From: Escherichia phage BME3
Strand: one strand, 5' to 3'
Sequence record: PP239276.1
Length of the DNA stretch: 64,000 nt
Both the position numbers and the translations under genes were made by a program. The notes beneath the pieces are model-generated. The model ran no database searches, was not told the origin of the DNA, and was given only the letters and a program-made list of their open reading frames with translations. Positions 30,744 through 64,000 of the stretch are shown one piece after another; the stretch's first letter is position 1, and each line of letters begins with the position of its first letter.

Positions 30744-33005
30744 GTGACTCAGTATCTAAGCAAATCTATCCGTTATGTAACAAAAACAAACGGCAAGAAA
30801 GAAGAATTTAATCCAGAAAAACTTCGTAAATGGTCAGAGTTTGCTGCTGGTAAATTAAATTGGTCTGAAATTGAACTCGAAGCTGTTAAACGTTGTTACG
30901 ACGGTGTGCCTACTCGTGATTTACATAAAGCTATGATAGCAGCATGTATTGATAAGAAAGATCAGGCATATAGTGATATGGCAGGTCGGTTACTTCTTGG
31001 TATGATCTATAAACAGGCTCATGGGGGATATCACAATATCCCCTCCCTCCTGGATTTCTACAATATGTCTGTAAGTAAAGGCTATTGGGGAAAAATGGAT
31101 TATACAGAAGAAGAAATTATTGAGATTGGTAAAATTGTCAATCACGATAAAAACCTAACTTATGGTTATTCCGTACTGCGCCAGATGGTTGATAAGTATC
31201 TTGTGAAAGATGCGATCAATGATGTTGTTTTTGAATCACCACAGTTTTTATTCATTGGTGTAGCAATGAAGGTAATGGAAATTCAACCAAAAGATCGCAG
31301 AGTAGAAGACATTAAACGTCTATATACCTACGTAAGTGATCTTAAGATTAATTTACCATCGCCTTATTTAACAACTTTGCGTACTAAGATTAAAGGTAGT
31401 GCTTCTTGTTGTCTGTTTAGAGCAGATGATACAGCAGAATCTTTAGCAATTGCTAACTATCTTGCTCATGAATATACATTGAATAATGCAGGTATTGGTG
31501 TTAACCTACAAACCCGTGCTACAGGACAAGGTGTTAAGAACAACCGTATCGTTCACGGTGGGCTTTTACCATATCTGAAATGGATGGAAACAAGTGTTGG
31601 AGCATCAAAACAAGCAAGTCGTGGTGGAAGTGCAACAGTAACGTTCACAATATTAGAGCCTGACTTTGAAGATCTGGTACGTTTGAAAAACCCAACTACG
31701 GTTAGTGAAAAACGAGTAGATAAACTTGATTACTCTATTGTAGTAAACAATGCTTTCCTGCGACGTGCAGCAAAAGGTAAAGATTGGATGTTAGTCAGTT
31801 ATGACGAAGCACCAGAACTCTATGAGGCGCTTTATAAAAGCGAGGAAGAGTTTGAAGAAGTATATGAAAAAGTTAGTCGCAAACGAATTAAGAAGAAGTT
31901 TGTAAAAGCACGAGATCTTCTGGCAGAAATTATTACACAAAGAGCAGAGACAGGACGTATTTATATGTTCTTTGCGGATAATGTTAATAAGCATACTCCG
32001 TTTAAGGATGTTATTTACCAGTCAAACTTGTGCCAAGAAATTTTCTTACCTACGAAAGCATTTCACAATATGACTGATCTTTTCACAGGTGAGAATACAG
32101 AAGATCAAGAATTGGCATTATGCTTCCTGTCTTCTATTGTAGCTGGTCGTGTTACACCAGAAGAATATGAAGATGTTGCATATTATACCGTTCTAACTAT
32201 TGATAATGTTATTGAAACAATGCAGTATCCGTTTAAACATAACGAAATCACTGCTAAAGCACGTAGGTCTATCGGTGTAGGTATTACAAACCTTGCACAT
32301 TATCTGGCAAGTAATTTTGTTACTTATTCAGATCCTTACGGCAAAAAACTAATTCACGAATTAGCAGAAAGACATTATTACTGGTTAGCAAGAGCTTCTC
32401 TTCGTTTGGCAAAAGAGAAAGGTAATGCAGAATGGATGCATAAAACCAAGTGGCCTGAAGGATGGTTGCCTATTGATACCTACGCTAAAGCTGTAGACGA
32501 TATTGGCAATTTTAAACTTAAAATGGATTGGGAAGGTTTACGACAAGATATCATTGCACAAGGTGGTATCCGAAATAGCGTATTAGCAGCTATTGCTCCA
32601 AATGAGTCCAGTAGTCTTGTAAGTAATACGACTAACTCTGTGTATCCTGTACGAGATACTATAGTTTATAAACAAAGCCAAAAAGGTAATGTTCTGTTTA
32701 TTGTGCCAGATTACGATAAACTAAAAGATATTTACCAATCGGCTTGGGATACGCCAGATAAAGATATGGCTGAAGCATATGGTCTGTTGACTAAATTCTT
32801 AGATCAAGGTGCATCATGTGATAAGTGGATTGACTACTCTAAGATGGAAGGTGGTCGTTTATCCATTAAATCAGAAATGCAATATATCCTTCAGTTTGCA
32901 AAACTTGGTGGTAAATCTTTGTACTATCTAAATAGTAGAACAAAATCGGCAACCTCACTCGCTCAAGAGGATGAAGAATCCGGTTGTGAGGCTTGTAAGA
33001 TGTAA
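30744..33005 (+). CDS. nrdA: ribonucleoside-diphosphate reductase alpha subunit (class Ia)
   Basis: 753 aa; N-terminal ATP-cone (VTKTNGKKEEFNPEKLRKW), large catalytic core, C-terminal redox Cys pair ...ESGCEACKM; GTG start with AGGAGAGG RBS. Confidence 0.9.
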   Translation: MTQYLSKSIRYVTKTNGKKEEFNPEKLRKWSEFAAGKLNWSEIELEAVKRCYDGVPTRDLHKAMIAACIDKKDQAYSDMAGRLLLGMIYKQAHGGYHNIPSLLDFYNMSVSKGYWGKMDYTEEEIIEIGKIVNHDKNLTYGYSVLRQMVDKYLVKDAINDVVFESPQFLFIGVAMKVMEIQPKDRRVEDIKRLYTYVSDLKINLPSPYLTTLRTKIKGSASCCLFRADDTAESLAIANYLAHEYTLNNAGIGVNLQTRATGQGVKNNRIVHGGLLPYLKWMETSVGASKQASRGGSATVTFTILEPDFEDLVRLKNPTTVSEKRVDKLDYSIVVNNAFLRRAAKGKDWMLVSYDEAPELYEALYKSEEEFEEVYEKVSRKRIKKKFVKARDLLAEIITQRAETGRIYMFFADNVNKHTPFKDVIYQSNLCQEIFLPTKAFHNMTDLFTGENTEDQELALCFLSSIVAGRVTPEEYEDVAYYTVLTIDNVIETMQYPFKHNEITAKARRSIGVGITNLAHYLASNFVTYSDPYGKKLIHELAERHYYWLARASLRLAKEKGNAEWMHKTKWPEGWLPIDTYAKAVDDIGNFKLKMDWEGLRQDIIAQGGIRNSVLAAIAPNESSSLVSNTTNSVYPVRDTIVYKQSQKGNVLFIVPDYDKLKDIYQSAWDTPDKDMAEAYGLLTKFLDQGASCDKWIDYSKMEGGRLSIKSEMQYILQFAKLGGKSLYYLNSRTKSATSLAQEDEESGCEACKM

Positions 33006-33381
33006 TGAAACTAGGGGGCTTTGTCCCCCTTTCTTAAGGAGGAATATGCCTACATTAGTTGTATTACCTGGAGCAACACCACAAAGACGCTGGGGAAATT
33101 ATACACTGGTAGATAGTAAAGATTTTACATTCGATTGGTGTTGTCATTATATTGCAGGTTTTCAATTTTCCAGTGTTGAAATATGGGCTTCCAATGATCC
33201 CATAGCTACCTGGTATGCTTTAACCAGGGCAAGGTATGAGGGAGAGGTTACTGTACTACTCACAAAGAGTGTATGGGATGCATTAGAGAAGGCTTACATA
33301 GAGCATGGTATGGAGAGAGAACACATTGATACAATAAAAGCAATGTGCGATATTGTGGAGGATTTAAATGGCAGCAATTAA
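32971..33381 (+). CDS. hypothetical protein between nrdA and nrdB
   Basis: AAGGAGG RBS before internal Met near 33046 (MPTLVVLPGATPQRRW...); ~111 aa, Trp/Cys-rich. Confidence 0.45.
   Translation: MKNPVVRLVRCNETRGLCPPFLRRNMPTLVVLPGATPQRRWGNYTLVDSKDFTFDWCCHYIAGFQFSSVEIWASNDPIATWYALTRARYEGEVTVLLTKSVWDALEKAYIEHGMEREHIDTIKAMCDIVEDLNGSN
33013..33035 (+). promoter_or_regulatory. GC hairpin between nrdA and the next gene (attenuator or terminator)
   Basis: AGGGGGC-TTTG-TCCCCCT hairpin followed by TTCTT. Confidence 0.4.
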
Positions 33382-34848: not shown

Positions 34849-34995
34849 ATGGATGATGTAAGTATTTGTCCTATCTGCGGTGGTACTGGGAATTTTATTG
34901 TTAGTATGGAACAATTTATTCCTTGTTGGAATTGTAACGGCTTAGGTTTCGTTCATACAGAAGAAAAAGAAGAGGAGGAAGATAGTGGGGGTTGA
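34849..34995 (+). CDS. small zinc-ribbon protein (48 aa, below ORF-track cutoff)
   Basis: Hand-translated MDDVSICPICGGTGNFIVSMEQFIPCWNCNGLGFVH...; CPxCG...CWNCNG; GAGGAG RBS. Confidence 0.35.
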   Translation: MDDVSICPICGGTGNFIVSMEQFIPCWNCNGLGFVHTEEKEEEEDSGG

Positions 34996-52009: not shown

Positions 52010-52078
52010 AACCTCCTGTAACGCATTCTAACGCACTTTTTATTTTAGTAATACGTTTCCCTATCTAATGCAAACAAA

Positions 52079-52111
52079 AGCCCCTAGAATCGCTTCTAGG
52101 GGCTTTATTTT
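52079..52111. terminator. bidirectional intrinsic terminator at convergence point
   Basis: AGCCCCTAGAA-TCGC-TTCTAGGGGCT hairpin flanked by A-run and T-run, between converging plus and minus blocks. Confidence 0.6.
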
Positions 52112-55242: not shown

Positions 55243-55491
55243 TTACCATCGAATAACTATTCGAGTAAAGTTTTCATCGTAATGAGATGTTTCTGTATCA
55301 ATAAAAGTTGAAAAACCTTCAGCATCCAAGCTAACTTTTGCGAAAGTTGGATAAAGCGTGTATATAGCAACTTCTCTGTCTCCATCTTTAGCTGCTCTCT
55401 CAATATACGCGTAGATATTTTGTAAACTCTCCTTTGCTTTGTTAAGTTCTGCGTTTTCTGCCAGTTCTCTCATTTTATCTGCTACAGTCAT
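55243..55491 (-). CDS. hypothetical protein
   Basis: 82-aa ORF. Confidence 0.45.
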   Translation of the reverse strand: MTVADKMRELAENAELNKAKESLQNIYAYIERAAKDGDREVAIYTLYPTFAKVSLDAEGFSTFIDTETSHYDENFTRIVIRW

Positions 55492-55760
55492 TTGTCAGTA
55501 TCCTTTTCAATAAATCCTGTGGTTTTACAAGGCACACATTCATACATCTGTCCAACATCTGCAACTACCCAACCCATTCCATTGCAATAAGGACAGATTG
55601 TTTTGTTCTCTTTAGCATACACAGCCAGAAGTCTTTCTTCTAGCTTGTTGTAATCAGCAAGAAGAACATAGTCTCCTTCTGGATCTGGTACAATATCACA
55701 TTGACCAGCAGCACCTTGGCTGTACACCTCTAAATCATATCGTGTAACCATTATTCCCAC
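55488..55760 (-). CDS. hypothetical protein (CDIVxDPxG family, copy 1)
   Basis: 90 aa; shares QCDIVPDPEGDYVLLADY with the 59590..59814 product (ACHCDIVEDPNGEMVYYEDY); also CPYCNG...CVPC. Confidence 0.45.
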   Translation of the reverse strand: MGIMVTRYDLEVYSQGAAGQCDIVPDPEGDYVLLADYNKLEERLLAVYAKENKTICPYCNGMGWVVADVGQMYECVPCKTTGFIEKDTDK

Positions 55761-55969
55761 TCCGCAATCAGTTTTGGATTTTCTGCACGAGAATAGAATG
55801 TTGTAATGTCACCGTAAGTGTACTCTTGTTCCGACAGTTTTACAAGAGAGATCATTTCACGATCTGGAGTACCAGGAATCCAGTCAAATACAGCAACACC
55901 ACGTGGTGTTACATAGAAACCAGATGTATTACCCGTAAACTTATCTTTTCCTTTATATAATTTGTACAC
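55751..55969 (-). CDS. hypothetical protein
   Basis: 72-aa ORF. Confidence 0.45.
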   Translation of the reverse strand: MYKLYKGKDKFTGNTSGFYVTPRGVAVFDWIPGTPDREMISLVKLSEQEYTYGDITTFYSRAENPKLIAEWE

Positions 55970-56176
55970 TTTCTACTCCTCATAGATAGAACCTATTAAA
56001 AACCTGCTATCAATCGGTATAAACAGTTTTACTTTTCGTAAAAAACATGCTACCCTAATCTTATATACCGAGCGATAGCGAGGTAGAGAATATTCCATGT
56101 TATACATGGAAAGAGTATATGTAATGTTACTAACTCTATAACTAACTATATACTCTTAATATCTTACTTACTACTC

Positions 56177-56440
56177 TTATTGAAGTTCAAAGATATCCCC
56201 ATCTCCATCATATCCATACTCTAACTCTCCTGTATCATATAATACAATAAAGTCTGTATCATCTTCAATAAAAGATCTAGCATAATCTACTAACTCTTCA
56301 TTATCTTCATAACCTTCCAGGTACTCAATACGACCATTGATACACTTAGCTGCAACAATTCCTGGGCCATTGCTTGGAGTCCACTCACTGTATACCCGCA
56401 TGCCTAATTCTTTAATCATTGTTTGTCTCCTCATAATCAA
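56177..56440 (-). CDS. hypothetical acidic protein
   Basis: 87-aa ORF. Confidence 0.45.
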   Translation of the reverse strand: MIMRRQTMIKELGMRVYSEWTPSNGPGIVAAKCINGRIEYLEGYEDNEELVDYARSFIEDDTDFIVLYDTGELEYGYDGDGDIFELQ

Positions 56441-56636
56441 CGTAATTGTAACACTTATTCTTTAAGAAATCTTCTGCTTGTTTATTATGTTTTAGAATGG
56501 TGCACTTCTCTATGTTATGTTCTACATTGTTGTGTAGCTTGTATAAGTTAGCTGCACCATACAGAATACCAATTAACAAAAGCAAAAAGATTGCTGTTGA
56601 TAACAAAAATTGTTGCAACTTGTTTACAGACTTCAT
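56412..56636 (-). CDS. small membrane-anchored protein (family B, copy 1)
   Basis: 74 aa; N-terminal TM, C-terminal KCTILKHNKQAEDFLKNKCYNYVDYE paralogous to 59824..60072 (QCIVFKHQRDAEKFLALDCNRYVSYQ). Confidence 0.45.
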   Translation of the reverse strand: MKSVNKLQQFLLSTAIFLLLLIGILYGAANLYKLHNNVEHNIEKCTILKHNKQAEDFLKNKCYNYVDYEETNND

Positions 56637-56859
56637 GAACCCTCCTTATCGTTAGTACACATTGATACTAACAAGAAGTTAAGATCGTGTCAACATCTTT
56701 GTGTTAATTTTATCCACTGTTCACATTCTTCTTTTGTGTCATACTCTACAGGCTTTCCTGTATCATTTCCACAACCATCTCCGAACGTAGCCCACCAGGA
56801 GAATAGAAAACAAGTTTCTCTTACTCTCCACTTATTAGCATAGGGCACAACATAATAAC

Positions 56860-57111
56860 TCATAAGGTTGTGATCCTTAGCTCATTTTTTAAGGTATGTC
56901 TCACACACTCTTTGAAATTGTTATCAATATACACCACACGTACTCCATGAGGTGTGTCTTTACATTCAAACACATTATATACAGTATCAGATAAGACATG
57001 TTGTACGTTTACTTGTCCAATGCCATTTTTAACCACAACCATTACTTTCAGTAAACTTGTATGGTTTTTAACTTCATCTGCTACGTATGCTACAACATCT
57101 TTGATATTCAT
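56860..57111 (-). CDS. hypothetical protein
   Basis: 83-aa ORF. Confidence 0.45.
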   Translation of the reverse strand: MNIKDVVAYVADEVKNHTSLLKVMVVVKNGIGQVNVQHVLSDTVYNVFECKDTPHGVRVVYIDNNFKECVRHTLKNELRITTL

Positions 57112-57407
57112 GGTTTCTCCTGTTTAAGTACGATATAGGATTGACGAGATTTCCATCGCCCTATCTTAACAAGGCAAATAATGCCTCTCTTTAACAAATA
57201 TTTCATATCTTCGTCATAAGCTGTTTGCAATTGCCACTTACTGTTAACAGGAAGCGAACCATGTACCCTTAAATGAGCTAACAAATACTTTCTTCGCTCT
57301 TTTCCATAAGGCAGGTATTGCCATTCTTTCTTTGATACAGGTTCATGTACTTTGCGATGCCAGTAAGTAAGGTGTCTTCTTTTATGTAAACCCCTATTCC
57401 TTACCAT
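57108..57407 (-). CDS. hypothetical basic protein
   Basis: 99-aa ORF, R/K/H-rich. Confidence 0.45.
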   Translation of the reverse strand: MVRNRGLHKRRHLTYWHRKVHEPVSKKEWQYLPYGKERRKYLLAHLRVHGSLPVNSKWQLQTAYDEDMKYLLKRGIICLVKIGRWKSRQSYIVLKQEKP

Positions 57408-57646
57408 TATACCTCTACCTCCGTTACCCCAGGATCTCTAGTCCAAGTGTAGTAGAGCATACCATCTTCTTTCAGTGCAATGCGATCACTTTCGTCTCGA
57501 AGATATAGGTCACATACTACGCGCAGTTGCGGATCTGATCCGAGTAGTTCTGAAACAATAAGGTCATCACCGCTCATACGAGCAACAATCACTGCATATT
57601 GACCAGTATCTGCATCAAAAATTGGTTGTCCGATGTTTAATTGCAT
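57407..57646 (-). CDS. hypothetical protein
   Basis: 79-aa ORF. Confidence 0.45.
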   Translation of the reverse strand: MQLNIGQPIFDADTGQYAVIVARMSGDDLIVSELLGSDPQLRVVCDLYLRDESDRIALKEDGMLYYTWTRDPGVTEVEV

Positions 57647-57918
57647 TGTGTTGTCTCCTTATTCAGTACGTTGTTTTGTGCTGCGCACCAGCACTCATAA
57701 AAACCTTGGGTTAATGGCATAGTGTAATTTCCAGAAGGATCTCTTTCGAGATCCCCATCTGCATAACAACCACTACCTAAGAACCATTTTTCAAAATCGG
57801 ATAAATCATCCCAATCTACACTATTTTTCATATTATACTGTCTTATACCCGACAATGGCAACCTGATTCGTAGGCTTCCAACGACCAATAATCTCACCAG
57901 AAATCTCTGTGCTACCAT
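57637..57918 (-). CDS. hypothetical protein
   Basis: 93-aa track ORF; probable start at internal MKNSVDWDD near 57831. Confidence 0.4.
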   Translation of the reverse strand: MVAQRFLVRLLVVGSLRIRLPLSGIRQYNMKNSVDWDDLSDFEKWFLGSGCYADGDLERDPSGNYTMPLTQGFYECWCAAQNNVLNKETTQCN

Positions 57919-58324
57919 TTATGTATTGGTAATGGGTATCATCATGATTAACCCATGCCATAACGTCAAGAGTAGGGGTTTTGACGTGTACCAGTAATGT
58001 AGCCCATTCTGGGGCTTCTTTAATATCTACAGAATCTTGCCAATCTTCTTCGATATGCCAAGTAGGTTCACCATCAACATCTGTAACGAAGAAACGAGCT
58101 TTCATACGTTTAAAGAACATTGGTGTATACCCGTGATCGCACTCTGGGATAAAATCATCCATTGTCTCGTCATAGGTGAAATATTGTCCATCTTTGTAAT
58201 GAAAAGATGCGCAAAACAGTTCATTACGAGCAGGAACATGCCATACAGCTACAAAACTACGACCATGTGGATAATGTTTAACCTCTTGCATAGTTTTCTC
58301 CTTATTTTTATTCAAAAGAATCAA
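57833..58324 (-). CDS. hypothetical protein
   Basis: 163-aa track ORF; AAGGAG RBS before internal MQEVKHYPH near 58291. Confidence 0.5.
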   Translation of the reverse strand: MILLNKNKEKTMQEVKHYPHGRSFVAVWHVPARNELFCASFHYKDGQYFTYDETMDDFIPECDHGYTPMFFKRMKARFFVTDVDGEPTWHIEEDWQDSVDIKEAPEWATLLVHVKTPTLDVMAWVNHDDTHYQYINGSTEISGEIIGRWKPTNQVAIVGYKTV

Positions 58325-58751
58325 TTCGATTTTGTTCTATGTCAATTGCAGCATCTAAGATAAGTTTTAACGCTTCAAATTGCAAGTCTTCTTCTAAAGA
58401 GAAGACATATAAAACAACGGACTCCAAGTAAGACAGCACCCCAAGACTAAGAGTTGCAATCTCTACTCCTGCATCGGAGAAGCCTGTTTGCAAAACTTCT
58501 TTGAAGAAACGTTGTTTATCAACAATAGCAGATAAAATAAGCGTTTTACGCTCCTCTGCTGATCGCACTGTGCTGTATATGTTGCTAAAAGAGTCCAGCC
58601 ACATTTTGATCATACCTTGGCGGTACATAAGGATTTCAATATCAGCCAACATATTATTTATCCTCTGGAGAGAGATTTGTATTAATTTGATAGTAAAAAT
58701 CAAAATCCTTGTGTTGATCGCACCATTCTTGAGCCTCTTTAAATGACGCAA
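58308..58751 (-). CDS. hypothetical protein
   Basis: 147-aa ORF. Confidence 0.45.
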   Translation of the reverse strand: MRHLKRLKNGAINTRILIFTIKLIQISLQRINNMLADIEILMYRQGMIKMWLDSFSNIYSTVRSAEERKTLILSAIVDKQRFFKEVLQTGFSDAGVEIATLSLGVLSYLESVVLYVFSLEEDLQFEALKLILDAAIDIEQNRIDSFE

Positions 58752-58826
58752 ATTGCATAGTGAATGTTGCCATCCATGTGTTCATATTTTTATTGAACTT
58801 GTCGATAAAAAATGTTTGCATTTTCA

Positions 58827-59411
58827 TTACACATCCTCCATTTGGAACATCTCTTTGTGGTTAGAATAGATCTGTTTGAAAATCTTGTCAAGACGTTCAT
58901 ATGATTCTTTATGCTCTTGTTTCCATCCTTGATTTCGGATTTTATCTGCCAGGTCATAAACCTCGCATAAAACTTTGGCAAAGTTGGTATTATTTATAGC
59001 ACAAGCCTCAAAACCTTGAACTAAACCCTCTACATCGTACCACGTATAGTCAGAGTCACTAGGAGGCTTTCCTGCATCGGCTAAACGTTGCCTCACCCAT
59101 TCGATACGTTTTTCATTCAAATGGCACTTACCTTCTCTACACTCTTGTTCTAATTCTTCTTTAGATTCATTGAATGGGTGAAGGACAGGTAGCTCTGCTT
59201 TTTGCAATTGCTCCAGATATTCTCCTACAATGCGCATAGCTTCACTGTGTGTACACTTTCTACCTGTGTGCCAGTAACGGAAGATACTTTCTGTTAAACA
59301 GATGTTTTTACTAAACATCGCATTGTCTTTAACATTCGATCTATTAACCCAGTCTATATAATATACATAAAACTGCAATAATTCATAACTGCTTGGTATA
59401 ATTTTACTCAT
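58827..59411 (-). CDS. hypothetical protein (family A, copy 1)
   Basis: 194 aa; shares LHPFN and RIEWVRQRL-type segments with the 60035..60385 and 62125..62547 products. Confidence 0.5.
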   Translation of the reverse strand: MSKIIPSSYELLQFYVYYIDWVNRSNVKDNAMFSKNICLTESIFRYWHTGRKCTHSEAMRIVGEYLEQLQKAELPVLHPFNESKEELEQECREGKCHLNEKRIEWVRQRLADAGKPPSDSDYTWYDVEGLVQGFEACAINNTNFAKVLCEVYDLADKIRNQGWKQEHKESYERLDKIFKQIYSNHKEMFQMEDV

Positions 59412-59589
59412 AACCTCTCCTTAATTGTGCAAAATGTTATCGATCAGTATGACTAATAATACGAGGATAGAAGGGAGTAGGAATAGAAATCTTAACATTA
59501 TGTGATGCGTGTGAGAAGCGGCTTTAGCGCCAGCCGCCAGTAAGCCTACTAATCCTACAATAAAGAGGAGTTGTTCAGGGACACCCATA

Positions 59590-59814
59590 TTATGAAACAC
59601 TTGGATACTCCGTAAGTTCGGCTAATAGTTGGATATGTGGACACGTGAATTGTTGTCCTGGATAGCGTGAGCTAATATCATCCAGTAAAGCAATCACAGC
59701 ATTGTGCAATGCTTCGTAATCCTCATAATACACCATCTCTCCATTAGGATCTTCAACAATATCACAGTGACAAGCGTGAGCAGTACACGCATCCCATTCC
59801 AGACGTTTTACCAT
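59590..59814 (-). CDS. hypothetical protein (CDIVxDPxG family, copy 2)
   Basis: 74 aa; paralogous to the 55488..55760 product. Confidence 0.45.
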   Translation of the reverse strand: MVKRLEWDACTAHACHCDIVEDPNGEMVYYEDYEALHNAVIALLDDISSRYPGQQFTCPHIQLLAELTEYPSVS

Positions 59815-59823
59815 AAATCCTCC

Positions 59824-60072
59824 TTACTTATACATTTGATAAGATACATAGCGATTACAATCAAGTGCGAGAAACTTTTCAGCATCTCTTTGATGCTTGA
59901 ACACAATACACTGTTCTTTTTTAGCTTCACTTTCACGAGCTTCTCTTGCCATATACTCGCCTAAACGAATGATACCAGAGAATAACACGTATGCAAGAAT
60001 AAGACAAAGAGTGATTGCACAGAAAGTTTTAAACTTAACCATTGTATTCCTCCATATCACGAATACGATCAA
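59824..60072 (-). CDS. small membrane-anchored protein (family B, copy 2)
   Basis: 82 aa; TM helix then Cys-containing C-terminal domain paralogous to 56412..56636; GGAGG RBS before internal MVKFKT. Confidence 0.45.
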   Translation of the reverse strand: MIVFVIWRNTMVKFKTFCAITLCLILAYVLFSGIIRLGEYMAREARESEAKKEQCIVFKHQRDAEKFLALDCNRYVSYQMYK

Positions 60073-60385
60073 TCACCCATTGTACACGTTCTTTGTTAAG
60101 GTGTGCAATGCCTAACTCTGTTTCCGTAAAGTAATGTGAGAAATCTGTATTAAATGGGTGTAAATGGTTCAAACCCGCTTTCTTAAACTGTTCCTTCATT
60201 TCCTCTCGTACAGAGGACTGGAGGTTTGCTACATTCTCAACATCTTTTATCCAAGCGATATTGTATAAGAAGTCTACAAGACACGTGCAAAGACCATAAT
60301 GCTTTTTGCTAAAGTTTGTATCTTCTTGTTCTAACCACCATTCATAAAATTGTAGCAAATAGGGGCTGCTTTTCATGTTACACAC
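60035..60385 (-). CDS. hypothetical protein (family A, copy 2)
   Basis: 116 aa; LLQFYEWWLEQ, GLCTCLVDFL, LHPFN, RVQWVIDRI shared with the 62125..62547 product. Confidence 0.5.
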   Translation of the reverse strand: MCNMKSSPYLLQFYEWWLEQEDTNFSKKHYGLCTCLVDFLYNIAWIKDVENVANLQSSVREEMKEQFKKAGLNHLHPFNTDFSHYFTETELGIAHLNKERVQWVIDRIRDMEEYNG

Positions 60386-60398
60386 TTTATTATTCTCC

Positions 60399-60698
60399 TT
60401 AATGCCAATCTACGATCACTGAATCTACAAAACCCTCTTTGGTGTTTAAAGCATACACCTTACTAAGCCCACGCTCTCGTAGTGCTTCCATAGCAAGATC
60501 AATCAAATCAACTTGGCGTTTCCTTGCTTGTTCATTTGTCGGATAGTCATCCAAACCGAAAACAGATGGTTTAAATGCTTTGGAGTATTTGCCAGTCTTA
60601 GCCTGGTCATAACAGTCCTGAATAACTTCATCAATAGGAAACCATAAGCCTTCTCCACTTTGCTTTGCAATACAACGCAGTTTTTCTGTAACAGTCAT
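60399..60698 (-). CDS. hypothetical protein
   Basis: 99-aa ORF. Confidence 0.45.
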   Translation of the reverse strand: MTVTEKLRCIAKQSGEGLWFPIDEVIQDCYDQAKTGKYSKAFKPSVFGLDDYPTNEQARKRQVDLIDLAMEALRERGLSKVYALNTKEGFVDSVIVDWH

Positions 60699-60907
60699 TC
60701 TTCCTCTCCTTTCAATTTACACTCAAAGATACCATTCTTAATGTTATCTGTCAAATAAAGACTATCTTCTATCTCTTCTTTTGTATACACATAAGCCTCC
60801 TTTTCCACGTCTGTCAGACCTTGCATCGGAGCTAGTAGCCACCAGCCCCGCCAGTCAAACATAGGAGACTTATCAGATACACGAAGAATGTATCTGTCAT
60901 TACACAT
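60695..60907 (-). CDS. hypothetical protein
   Basis: 70-aa ORF. Confidence 0.4.
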   Translation of the reverse strand: MCNDRYILRVSDKSPMFDWRGWWLLAPMQGLTDVEKEAYVYTKEEIEDSLYLTDNIKNGIFECKLKGEEE

Positions 60908-60910
60908 ATA

Positions 60911-61363
60911 TTATACGATGTTCACACTAATATCTGCAACACCAACAAGAGAATAGATTTCAACTACACTCTGTGTACGATCCAGCTTGTAACGTTTCGC
61001 CTCTTTTTCAACTTCCTCACGGTAGATAGTTTCCATGATCGGAACTCCATCCACTACAAGCAGGTATTTCTCTTCGTGTTTACTTTTTGGTGCTTCCTCT
61101 AAGACTTCTACAAAATACTCAAACTCACTTTTGGCAAGCAACGTGTAACACTGAAGAAAGTCTCCTTCATTTTGAGCGATAATTTCTTGTTCTCCTGTTA
61201 AGGATTGCAAAGCAGTGACACCATACCAATCATCCACATCTAATACACGAAAATAGGAATCACCTAAAAAAGAAGCAATCCTGCTATTGCACTCAGACAT
61301 GTTAGCAAACTTACGGATATAAGATGGGTTTTTAAAACGATACACTTTACCAATTTCAAACAT
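60911..61363 (-). CDS. hypothetical protein
   Basis: 150-aa ORF. Confidence 0.5.
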   Translation of the reverse strand: MFEIGKVYRFKNPSYIRKFANMSECNSRIASFLGDSYFRVLDVDDWYGVTALQSLTGEQEIIAQNEGDFLQCYTLLAKSEFEYFVEVLEEAPKSKHEEKYLLVVDGVPIMETIYREEVEKEAKRYKLDRTQSVVEIYSLVGVADISVNIV

Positions 61364-61378
61364 TACACAACTCCTTTT

Positions 61379-61639
61379 TTAAACAGTATATTCGTGTGGA
61401 AGGAAAACATAATCTTCTCCTTCAACAACATCAACTACTTCCCACTTCCAGCCAGGTACTTGGCTCATTGTCTTGAATGACACATAAGCAACTCCGCTGT
61501 AAGCGATATCGGCATCTAACATAAGAGGGAAAGCAACGTGTGTCAACCCCAGATAACCACAATTATTTTCAATATACACCTGAATGCTTTTCATGTTATG
61601 CTCCATTAAAGACGGGGCGTGTAGCGTTACGTTCATCAT
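61379..61639 (-). CDS. hypothetical protein
   Basis: 86-aa track ORF; true start probably an internal Met. Confidence 0.45.
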   Translation of the reverse strand: MMNVTLHAPSLMEHNMKSIQVYIENNCGYLGLTHVAFPLMLDADIAYSGVAYVSFKTMSQVPGWKWEVVDVVEGEDYVFLPHEYTV

Positions 61640-62054
61640 TCACTGTAATAAGGTTTTTCATAACCATAACACCCTGAATATAGCCTAGCCAACGATGGCG
61701 TTTGGTTTCAGACATACCATTACACCCATCCTGAATTTCATTCAACATCCACAGTAAGTGGGGAACACCTGTTTCACTAGTATCTGGATCTTCTACAGAA
61801 CTAAGAATAGTTTCATAGCGTTCACAAATTTCTGGGTAGAATTCATAATCCTGTTGTACATCTCGCATTTCTTGAATGAAGTGACGAGCAATAGGTTTTC
61901 CACGAAAATATTCATTGAGGAAATCAATAACACACATCTCACTGCCTGTCACCACGGAAGGCTTTCCTGTGTTAAATTGAACACTCACACCGCATTCTTT
62001 TACCAGATTATGTACACGCTCCGTGTTAGCAAGATACAAAGATACAGTTTTCAT
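61596..62054 (-). CDS. hypothetical protein
   Basis: 152-aa ORF. Confidence 0.5.
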   Translation of the reverse strand: MKTVSLYLANTERVHNLVKECGVSVQFNTGKPSVVTGSEMCVIDFLNEYFRGKPIARHFIQEMRDVQQDYEFYPEICERYETILSSVEDPDTSETGVPHLLWMLNEIQDGCNGMSETKRHRWLGYIQGVMVMKNLITVNDERNATRPVFNGA

Positions 62055-62124
62055 TTACACCTCTCATTAGTAGTTTGTTATGCGCGATATTGCATATCTT
62101 ATGGAACACAGTGTACAGGCATTT

Positions 62125-62547
62125 CTATTCAATGCAAGCATTATTTGCATCTTCGATTCTGTCTTTCACCCACTGCAATCTCTTTGGGTTGGTATGGCAA
62201 GAATGTGTCTTACCTTCGTCTTCATAACACAGAAGATCATAATTAAAGGGTAGGAAGGAGGATAGCCCAGCACACGTGAATTGCAGTTTCATCTCTTCCA
62301 GCGTTTTGCTACGAACCATCTTGAAATGTTCTATATCTTCTTGCGTAGGTTTTTTCTTTGACATAGTGGTTGCCAGGTAATCCATAAGGCAATTACACAA
62401 ACCAACATTCTCACGATGCATTGAGGAATGATCTTCCATCCATGCTTTATAGAATTCTAACAGCAGTGGACTGCTAAGAGGAACACACATATCAGACTCC
62501 TTTATAAATTTACGTTTCATGCCACACATAATACAGCGTCTTTTCAT
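62125..62547 (-). CDS. hypothetical protein (family A, copy 3)
   Basis: 140 aa; LLEFYKAWMED, GLCNCLMDYL, LPFN, RLQWVKDRI; first gene downstream of the repeat-containing non-coding region. Confidence 0.5.
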   Translation of the reverse strand: MKRRCIMCGMKRKFIKESDMCVPLSSPLLLEFYKAWMEDHSSMHRENVGLCNCLMDYLATTMSKKKPTQEDIEHFKMVRSKTLEEMKLQFTCAGLSSFLPFNYDLLCYEDEGKTHSCHTNPKRLQWVKDRIEDANNACIE

Positions 62548-62721: not shown

Positions 62722-63139
62722 ACCCCCTTTTCATAAGCGTAAAGTCAATAATATCAATAACTTGCCGCAAAATACTGCTCGCTTGCGAGAGGTGCTTAAC
62801 GCGATTTTCAGCGCCCCCCGATTTCTGCCGACCGTCCCCCTCAAATATCAATGAGAATAATTATCATTTGCATTATCATTCAATGACTTATAAGACTTTT
62901 GATTATTTTCTGAGCGAAAAAGGTGCTACTCACAACAAAACAGATAAATTCTAAGTAAATCAATGACTTGGCAAGTCTAAACATCTATATACACCTTGCC
63001 AAATGAAATGATCCTGCGTGAAATAGTGCTACCCGTGGAAGATAGCTGATAATGATTATCATTTGCATATTTTCTATACTATAAAACGCCCTAAAAATCA
63101 AGATAATTCTACTTTATTGCGCTTTTAAGAAAGTAGGCT
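62722..63139. repeat. direct repeat copy 1 (~417 bp)
   Basis: Near-identical to 63584..64000 (about 3 mismatches, all near the 5' end); contains inverted repeat TTGGCAAG-N21-CTTGCCAA and hairpin CTCGC-TTG-CGAG. Confidence 0.8.
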
Positions 63140-63583: not shown

Positions 63584-64000
63584 CACCCTTTTCATAATCG
63601 TAAAGTCAATAATATCAAAAACTTGACGCAAAATACTGCTCGCTTGCGAGAGGTGCTTAACGCGATTTTCAGCGCCCCCCGATTTCTGCCGACCGTCCCC
63701 CTCAAATATCAATGAGAATAATTATCATTTGCATTATCATTCAATGACTTATAAGACTTTTGATTATTTTCTGAGCGAAAAAGGTGCTACTCACAACAAA
63801 ACAGATAAATTCTAAGTAAATCAATGACTTGGCAAGTCTAAACATCTATATACACCTTGCCAAATGAAATGATCCTGCGTGAAATAGTGCTACCCGTGGA
63901 AGATAGCTGATAATGATTATCATTTGCATATTTTCTATACTATAAAACGCCCTAAAAATCAAGATAATTCTACTTTATTGCGCTTTTAAGAAAGTAGGCT
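63584..64000. repeat. direct repeat copy 2 (truncated by window end)
   Basis: Matches 62722..63139 base-for-base over its visible length apart from ~3 substitutions; may extend beyond the window. Confidence 0.8.

Follow-up and report, generated by a model that had tools for sequence, protein, structure and literature searches.

Escherichia phage BME3 carries, on the minus strand of the 64,000-nucleotide stretch analysed here (the window, from sequence record PP239276.1), a block of small genes in which three families of paralogues, A, B and C, lie between positions 55488 and 62547. The families are genuine: ancient, protein-coding and paralogous. On balance, the block is probably a left-end early accessory region that encodes small effectors binding or modifying host components, with a repertoire that evolves by duplication, swapping and deletion.

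Three families of paralogous genes

All seven genes are on the minus strand. The lead gene of family A, A3 (62125..62490), is the first gene after the terminal-repeat and non-coding region and encodes 121 amino acids (aa) from a probable ATG at 62490, in an open reading frame (ORF) that is open to 62547. A2 (60035..60385, 116 aa) is the equivalent of gp006 of phage phi92 and has a GTG start: because the ATG of its relatives (MQENNK...) is ATT in the window (60386-60403, minus strand), A2 starts at GTG 60385 or at ATG 60376. In A1 (58827..59411, phi92 gp010) the family A domain (residues about 1-116) is followed by a C-terminal extension of about 75 aa. Family B consists of B2 (59824..60042, phi92 gp007; 72 aa from ATG 60042 in an ORF open to 60072), the start of which overlaps the stop of A2 by 8 nt, and B1 (56412..56636, phi92 gp022; 74 aa), with a hydrophobic N-terminus and a C-x16-C domain. 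Family C consists of C2 (59590..59814, phi92 gp008; 74 aa), in which the C module (residues about 4-45) precedes a helical C-terminus, and C1 (55488..55751, phi92 gp025; 87 aa from ATG 55751 in an ORF open to 55760). The start codons given are the probable true starts, judged from ribosome-binding sites and the annotations of relatives.

The 363 ORFs of the window were compared all against all with blastp. The closest pair was found in family A, where A2 and A3 share 41% identity over 115 aa (E 1e-24), A2 and A1 30% over 114 aa (E 4e-9), and A3 and A1 match at E 8e-6. B1 and B2 share 44% over 27 aa (E 4e-5), and C1 and C2 share 36% over 44 aa (E 2e-4). Smith-Waterman alignment with composition-preserving shuffles was then applied to the 595 pairs formed by 35 genes of the block, with p values from a Gumbel distribution. 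The five paralogue pairs were the five best of the 595, with p of about 0, 2e-9, 9e-8, 6e-7 and 3e-6; the sixth-best pair had p 8e-5, and the remainder began near 2e-3, as expected for 595 tests. For each of the five pairs, none of 5000 shuffles reached the observed score. The B1/B2 match was still significant without the hydrophobic transmembrane segment (p 5e-7), as was C1/C2 when only the N-terminal 50 aa were used (p 1e-7). Significance thus survives control for composition, and the families are therefore real. A preliminary description of this DNA had put three multi-copy families at these positions; the shuffle test and the PHROG matches given below bear this out, with only the start codons adjusted.

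Profile comparison gave the same picture. A1, A2 and A3 all match phrog_2510 (E 3e-17, 2e-25 and 8e-23, respectively) and phrog_6418; B1 and B2 match each other's PHROG (phrog_23204 and phrog_15662) at about 1e-6, and C1 and C2 each other's (phrog_22955 and phrog_23083) at about 3e-4. Homologues from Phapecoctavirus and from FKP3, a Klebsiella phage, also bridge the B and C pairs. The window proteins are members of these PHROGs and, for family A, of phrog_27059. All the groups are of 'unknown function' and split each paralogous family into separate entries, and gp006, gp010, gp007, gp022, gp008 and gp025 are annotated in phi92 as hypothetical proteins. The genes have thus already been catalogued, and multi-copy early accessory genes are a known phenomenon. 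The literature searched contained no description of the paralogy, the range of copy number or the fold of family A. What appears to be new is the recognition that three paralogous families are present, how large family A is, its fold and its consistent placement at leading ends or in early-left regions, and a lead cassette with an embedded putative promoter.

The ratio of non-synonymous to synonymous polymorphism (pN/pS) was calculated against three close relatives. Gene-wide values, from small counts, were 0.16, 0.06 and 0.27 for A1, A2 and A3, 0.37 and 0.17 for B1 and B2, and 0.07 and 0.08 for C1 and C2. All seven genes are therefore under purifying selection and are functional coding genes. 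The genes had been called diversifying, which does not hold gene-wide among close orthologues; variation comes instead through cassette replacement, duplication and deletion.

Two further candidates in the block were considered. A 44-aa ORF annotated as a gene in relatives (55973-56107, minus strand) has no synonymous and five non-synonymous differences from the same three relatives, and may be non-coding. A fourth family had been suspected in the equivalents of gp005 (60399-60698) and gp026 (55243-55491), both of which begin MTV.EK.R and were called regulators by the phi92 annotators; the shuffle test gave it no support and it was dropped.

Origin of the families

That the similarities are due to chance or composition, or that the ORFs are not genes, would fit one result: a database-scale tblastn search started from B2 or C2 misses B1 and C1, and finds one place per record. 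This means, rather, that B and C are distant paralogues visible only in local comparison, since the p values of 3e-6 to about 0, the reciprocal PHROG matches, the bridging homologues in other phages and the low pN/pS ratios already refute chance, which must be rated extremely improbable.

The families had also been described as repeated cassettes. In transcriptional order, A3 and five further genes are followed by A2-B2-C2, a small membrane protein and A1, after which come nine genes, B1, another three genes and C1. The order A-B-C is therefore indeed seen twice, and to that extent the description stands, but only A2-B2-C2, contiguous and partly overlapping, forms a compact set. The second set covers 3.9 kb with 12 unrelated genes between its members, nine between A1 and B1 and three between B1 and C1, and the families are scattered in Phapecoctavirus. 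One ancestral A-B-C cassette could have been duplicated as a segment, with unrelated genes inserted afterwards. The repeated order would be explained in this way, the divergence within pairs is alike (A1/A2, B1/B2 and C1/C2, at the identities given above), and the adjacency of A to B recurs in phAPEC8, where a half-A gene overlaps B. Against this, a shared order of three has a 1-in-6 probability by chance, no additional paralogue pair was found in the block by the 595-pair shuffle test, and in a neighbour-joining tree A2 groups with the lead-locus copies and is not paired with A1. Similarity at the DNA level is confined to one 38-nt stretch of 79% identity at the CDIV.DP.G motif. Loci elsewhere also speak against it, as the fetched loci of Phapecoctavirus and FKP3 have a single B and many scattered A copies: phAPEC8 has the order half-A, B, four genes and a C2-type gene, with five further A copies scattered, and in phiWec181 ten A copies accompany one B and C modules that are split. 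Descent from a single duplication of three ancestral genes is thus possible, if weakly supported, and seems rather unlikely.

Family A

Family A appears to be a stand-alone all-alpha domain of about 110 aa. An AlphaFold2 model of A2 has six helices and a predicted local distance difference test score (pLDDT) of 90.4. About 200 A domains gave the signature SS..L..FY..(W/Y)L ... GLC.(N/C)L ... EM..QF..AGL...PF(N/G).....Y..E.....H.N..R..WV..R, in which about 12 polar positions are conserved at 60-100% although the domains otherwise share only about 30% identity. The many invariant polar residues (C, H, N, R, E and Q) suggest a specific pocket or active site.

Searches of Pfam, NCBIfam and PDB-sequence profiles with all seven A-C proteins gave noise only, and neither DUF551 nor Ead_Ea22 of Pfam was matched by any of the seven at E≤1. 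A Pfam scan of ten multi-domain family A homologues for fusion partners found nothing, and the names of the homologue clusters are all 'hypothetical'. No known structural relative of family A was found by fold search; its structural relatives in BFVD come from Pectobacterium, Burkholderia, Achromobacter and Delftia phages and are all uncharacterised. The idea of a DNA mimic was rejected, as the isoelectric points (5.3-7.6 for the A proteins) are unremarkable.

A profile of A1-A3 was searched against a library of 1.84 billion representatives; of the 50%-identity clusters, 764 matched at E≤1e-3, 179 of them at E≤1e-10. Translated searches (tblastn) placed family A in 177 phage records at 466 places, with 1-7 per record, among them rV5-like phages and phages of Klebsiella, Erwinia and Rhizobium. 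The family is widespread in phages of Proteobacteria and occurs as single genes, in tandem arrays, as polypeptides of two or three domains and as a module of P22-like 'ea'-region proteins. Most members are stand-alone proteins of 100-125 aa; BcepSaruman, a Burkholderia jumbo phage, and Citrobacter phage Tr1 are among those that have chains with two or three tandem A domains.

The preliminary description had proposed a comparison of copy number across related phages, and gene content and number were indeed found to vary. The fetched loci hold from 0 to 10 copies of A: none in FKP3 (a count that covers the fetched 22-kb stretch), two in phi92, three in the window, four in Eryne, seven in phAPEC8 and ten in phiWec181. 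In the tandem array at the lead position, the A copies likewise number none in phi92, one in the window, two in Eryne, two in phAPEC8 and three in phiWec181.

The position of the A genes is similar in unrelated settings. In both Stephanstirmvirinae genera they come first after a long non-coding region, which is about 1.5-1.9 kb in Phapecoctavirus-type loci and is the terminal-repeat region in the window. In T7-like Rhizobium phage RHEph08, A is gp07 and lies inside the first 3 kb, and in N4-like Erwinia phage Fifi450 it is about 2 kb from the genome end, near a gene annotated as putative RNAP1 subunit A. In the PL operon of a P22-like prophage, where N, cIII, arf, erf and abc2 lie upstream and int follows, a 402-aa protein with an A domain is flanked by an Ead/Ea22-like gene and a DUF551 gene. 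This recurrent leading-end or early-left position is the strongest clue to function, though an indirect one.

The lead locus

In each lead array the last A gene ends ...WVKDRIEDANNACIE, yet the bodies of these genes are only 31-49% identical. The shared end belongs to a conserved DNA island of about 85 nt (62100..62185, minus strand) that covers ~45 nt at the 3' end of A3 and a further ~45 nt downstream. Eight loci in two genera share 84-93% identity over the island and 55-70% in both of its flanks, and its 30-nt core GAAGATGCAAATAATGCTTGCATTGAATA is invariant in nine sequences including phi92, with no synonymous changes. Phi92 lacks the body of A3 and keeps an 80-nt 3' relic, so that the upstream leader is fused directly to the tail. 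As the core is invariant and is retained even there, the constraint must act on DNA or RNA and not on protein. The island holds a palindrome, ATGCAA-N7-TTGCAT, and a sigma70-like promoter with -35 TTGCAT, a 16-nt spacer and -10 TAyAnT, which would be expected to drive the downstream gp001-type gene. A regulatory element within the lead gene can thus freeze the C-terminus of a protein, and may mislead inference made from the protein sequence.

The lead A locus behaves as a replaceable cassette between conserved junctions. A3 is tandemly duplicated in Eryne, and one Eryne allele is about 97% identical in protein and about 85% in DNA over 669 nt to one of the alleles of phiWec181, a Phapecoctavirus, which points to exchange between genera or a shared old allele. 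Recombination has also left its mark elsewhere in the block. Among public chimeras, P0004 joins the N-terminus of A1 to the C-terminus of the ORF at 58308-58751, P0214 joins the N-terminus of C2 to the C-terminus of the ORF at 56177-56440, with the junction at a shared motif YED.EEL, and P0208 joins an A3-type N-terminus to the C-terminus of a 150-aa C2-type protein. These indicate that multi-kilobase deletions by recombination recur within the block.

Two motifs were noted around the lead gene. On the minus strand, GCAAATGATAATCATTATC is present at 63048-63066 and again at 63909-63927, and agrees with GATAATGATAATCATTATC, the consensus for the Fur box of E. coli, in 17 of 19 positions. No other site in the 64 kb comes within ≤3 mismatches of the consensus, where 0.05 were expected, and JohannJBalmer and Eryne have exactly the same sequence upstream of their lead A gene. 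Such a site could link early transcription to the iron status of the host, or could serve the phage as an operator. Five copies of the motif ATGCAAATRAT are present in the window, all on the minus strand (62140-62150, 62863-62873, 63058-63068, 63724-63734 and 63919-63929; 0.27 expected) and all in a 1.8-kb stretch that takes in the end of A3 and the DNA upstream of it. The motif connects the invariant island of the A3 tail with the 37-nt repeats found in the terminal-repeat region.

Families B and C

B1 and B2 share a basic N-terminus, one hydrophobic segment of about 20 residues and then a polar domain of about 40 aa, with two Cys at the conserved C-x16-C spacing. The phi92 annotators predicted a cleaved signal peptide in gp022. 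These features suggest a mini-protein that would be either anchored in the membrane with its N-terminus inside, or secreted, so that the C-x16-C domain would be periplasmic and probably disulfide-bonded.

What defines family C is an acidic module of about 45 aa at the N-terminus (hairpin then helix), to which interchangeable C-termini are joined; the similarity of C1 and C2 is limited to this module. The AlphaFold2 model of C2 (pLDDT 73) has two helices, with a low-confidence beta-hairpin running into the long one. The C-terminal half of C1 has a putative DnaJ-like zinc finger with two CxxCxGxG-type motifs, CPYCNGMG and CVPCKTTG. It matches phrog_13972 at E 3e-9 and the DnaJ-type PF00684 at E 0.017 (15.8 bits, below the 32.7-bit cut-off), and was called a DnaJ-like finger by the phi92 annotators too. 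A stand-alone 48-aa zinc-finger ORF on the plus strand of the window (34849..34995) is paralogous to this half of C1 (blastp E 2e-4, phmmer E 7.5e-5), and genes for the zinc finger only are also found in phiWec181 and FKP3. In phiWec181 the C module and the zinc finger are separate genes, and Phapecoctavirus has a protein of about 150 aa that starts with the C2 type. Given these differing C-termini and split modules, C is a shuffled module and not a fixed gene.

A Lar-like restriction-alleviation function was considered for C2 and rejected. The only match was to phrog_3592, at E 7.7e-4 over 47 residues of a 182-position profile; there was no match to Lar_restr_allev in Pfam, and the sequence has no CPxCG-type ribbon. 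The C-terminus of a plus-strand protein (32971-33381), ...CDIVEDLNGSN, has a 9-residue match to the C2 motif CDIVEDPNG, which at E 0.63 is not significant alone.

Position and probable role of the block

The window is from a Justusliebigvirus (phi92-like, Stephanstirmvirinae) coliphage. Positions 55488-62547 are 96-97.5% identical to many Justusliebigvirus Escherichia phages, such as vB_Eco_J-01 and JohannJBalmer/Bas62, and on alignment to FR775895.2 the minus-strand block at 52.1-62.5 kb is collinear with phi92 gp001-gp036. Window position 63139 aligns to phi92 position 1, where the left direct terminal repeat of that phage (343 bp) begins; the terminal-repeat region upstream of the block (62725..63139, minus strand) corresponds to phi92 positions 1-415 and includes that repeat. 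The distal end of the block is marked by a bidirectional terminator-like hairpin with a 13-bp stem (52077..52106), near which, at about 52 kb, the GC skew flips sign. With the terminal repeat adjoining the block, the genes co-oriented and gp001-gp036 collinear, the placing of these genes at a leading end is correct as a statement about the genome map.

If the block is the early accessory region proposed above, its proteins would be made at once, from the first DNA to be transcribed, and would act as small binders or inhibitors of host components. Family A would act in the cytoplasm and family B at the envelope, for example in superinfection exclusion or by interfering with an envelope target. 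Paralogues may cover different targets or alleles of a target, and the repertoire would change by duplication, deletion and replacement of whole cassettes between conserved junctions, not by point-mutational diversification. More tentatively, A may be an undescribed and widespread early effector domain with a new all-alpha fold and a conserved constellation of Cys, His, Asn, Arg and Glu, whose paralogues would each neutralise a different defence or takeover target in the host, and whose lead copy could be swapped between genera by recombination between a conserved leader and the invariant promoter or operator island within its last codons.

The preliminary description had gone further and seen in the block a hallmark of host-takeover or anti-defence arsenals. 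That part rests on position: in profile and structure searches, neither sequence nor fold tied any of the A-C proteins to one with a known part in anti-defence or host takeover. An anti-defence role in particular is possible, and appreciably less likely than the general picture of an accessory region. The one anti-defence gene that the literature reports for the genus, Atd1, encodes a MazG-like pyrophosphatase and was found to be unrelated to A, B and C.

Several points weigh against early effectors. The early timing of the operon is inferred from its place on the genome map; the literature searched yielded no transcriptome of any Stephanstirmvirinae phage, and the count of sigma70-like promoter matches in the block, 54, shows no enrichment over shuffled sequence (45.5 ± 6.5 expected). 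Individual A copies are dispensable, since the FKP3 stretch has none and phi92 is without A3. The invariant polar residues of A could mean an enzyme or a ligand pocket and not a simple binder. Finally, the BASEL study (PMC8594841) reports exceptional susceptibility of phi92-like phages to restriction-modification systems, a result that speaks against effective anti-restriction.

Two other functions for family A were weighed. A might be a small enzyme, or a sponge that binds a small-molecule signal, with a constellation such as Cys34, His100, Asn102, Arg105 and Glu67. The polar positions that persist despite low overall identity would be accounted for, and the tandem multi-domain forms look like multivalent binders; the Fic motif HPFx[D/E]GN[G/K]R, on the other hand, is absent family-wide. 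This seems an unlikely account of the family, if one to be kept in mind. It is still less likely that A, and perhaps C, are DNA-binding or transcription regulators of the phage's own early-to-middle switch and not effectors with host targets. The neighbours gp005, gp026 and gp027 were labelled potential transcription regulators by the phi92 annotators, and the A3 tail overlaps the conserved palindrome and promoter-like island, as would suit a regulator. The A2 model, however, is without a beta-wing, the conserved Cys, His, Asn, Glu and Gln are atypical of the recognition helix of a helix-turn-helix protein, and up to ten divergent copies per locus, proteins of two or three domains and dispensability would all be unusual for a core regulator. 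Small effectors with host targets remain the preferred interpretation.

Comparison with known systems shows resemblances, with differences in each case. The pre-early or first-step-transfer region of T5 and the host-takeover module of SPO1 are dense sets of small, mostly ORFan genes by a direct terminal repeat, presumed to be the first expressed. The block is likewise dense in small genes and adjoins a direct terminal repeat at a genome end, but its genes lie just inside the repeat and not within it, no homologues of T5 A1, A2 or Dmp or of SPO1 proteins were found, and multi-copy families are not a described feature of those modules. The early-left 'ea' region of lambdoid phages and P22 is alike in being mosaic, dispensable and prone to recombination, and has the A domain in the 402-aa protein. 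In the window, by contrast, the A proteins are stand-alone, have no Pfam match to Ead_Ea22 or DUF551 and belong to a virulent myovirus; phi92 gp011 and gp012, annotated as 'Eaa-like', are absent. Anti-CRISPR loci, the Ocr region of T7 and anti-defence islands resemble the block as early clusters of small accessory genes with fast turnover, the content of which varies between close relatives, but A-C have no sequence or fold similarity to known anti-defence proteins and the phages are sensitive to restriction-modification. In the multigene families (MGFs) of poxviruses and African swine fever virus, paralogues expand and contract near the genome end of a large dsDNA virus. Here the likeness is in evolutionary mode only, as there is no homology, the hosts belong to another domain and the window genes are far smaller.

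If these are indeed early effectors, family A would deserve functional screening, with hundreds of clusters, no Pfam model or solved structure, and a place in the leading-end or early-left regions of four phage architectures. Together with the envelope-facing B it would give a compact and easily synthesised set for counter-defence, takeover and superinfection-exclusion screens, for which the natural range of 0-10 A copies in relatives' fetched loci offers ready-made comparisons. Phi92-like phages are of therapeutic interest for their very broad host range, and their accessory repertoire is thus of practical value.

Other observations

Ten other genes of the block gave no significant Pfam match, and a scan of the block and upstream region with Rfam gave no match. 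The only block gene with a link to a named function is at 60911-61363 (minus strand), whose N-terminal about 70 residues resemble T4 goF, a modulator of mRNA metabolism (phrog_2980, E 5e-7).

Compared with phi92, the window is without gp011-gp013 ('Eaa-like' and 'Tk.3-like'), the site being window position 58822 (phi92 3896-5202). At 61380-62100 the genes have the same sizes as phi92 gp001-gp002 (phi92 562-1324), with DNA that cannot be aligned.

A 415-bp direct repeat is present at 62725-63139 and 63586-64000, the copies being 99.3% identical with a spacing of 861 bp, and the second copy stops exactly at the end of the window. The segment is single in relatives, where a 1453-nt query maps to about 1000-1040 nt of their records. 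The doubling may be a genuine tandem duplication of this terminal-repeat segment, or it may have arisen as an artefact of assembly or linearisation.

Three GenBank records, MG065639, MG065645 and MG065656 ('Campylobacter phage' A150, A145 and C3, labelled Campylobacter jejuni), are about 97% identical across the whole block. Because of this identity to a phi92-like coliphage, their host labels look doubtful.

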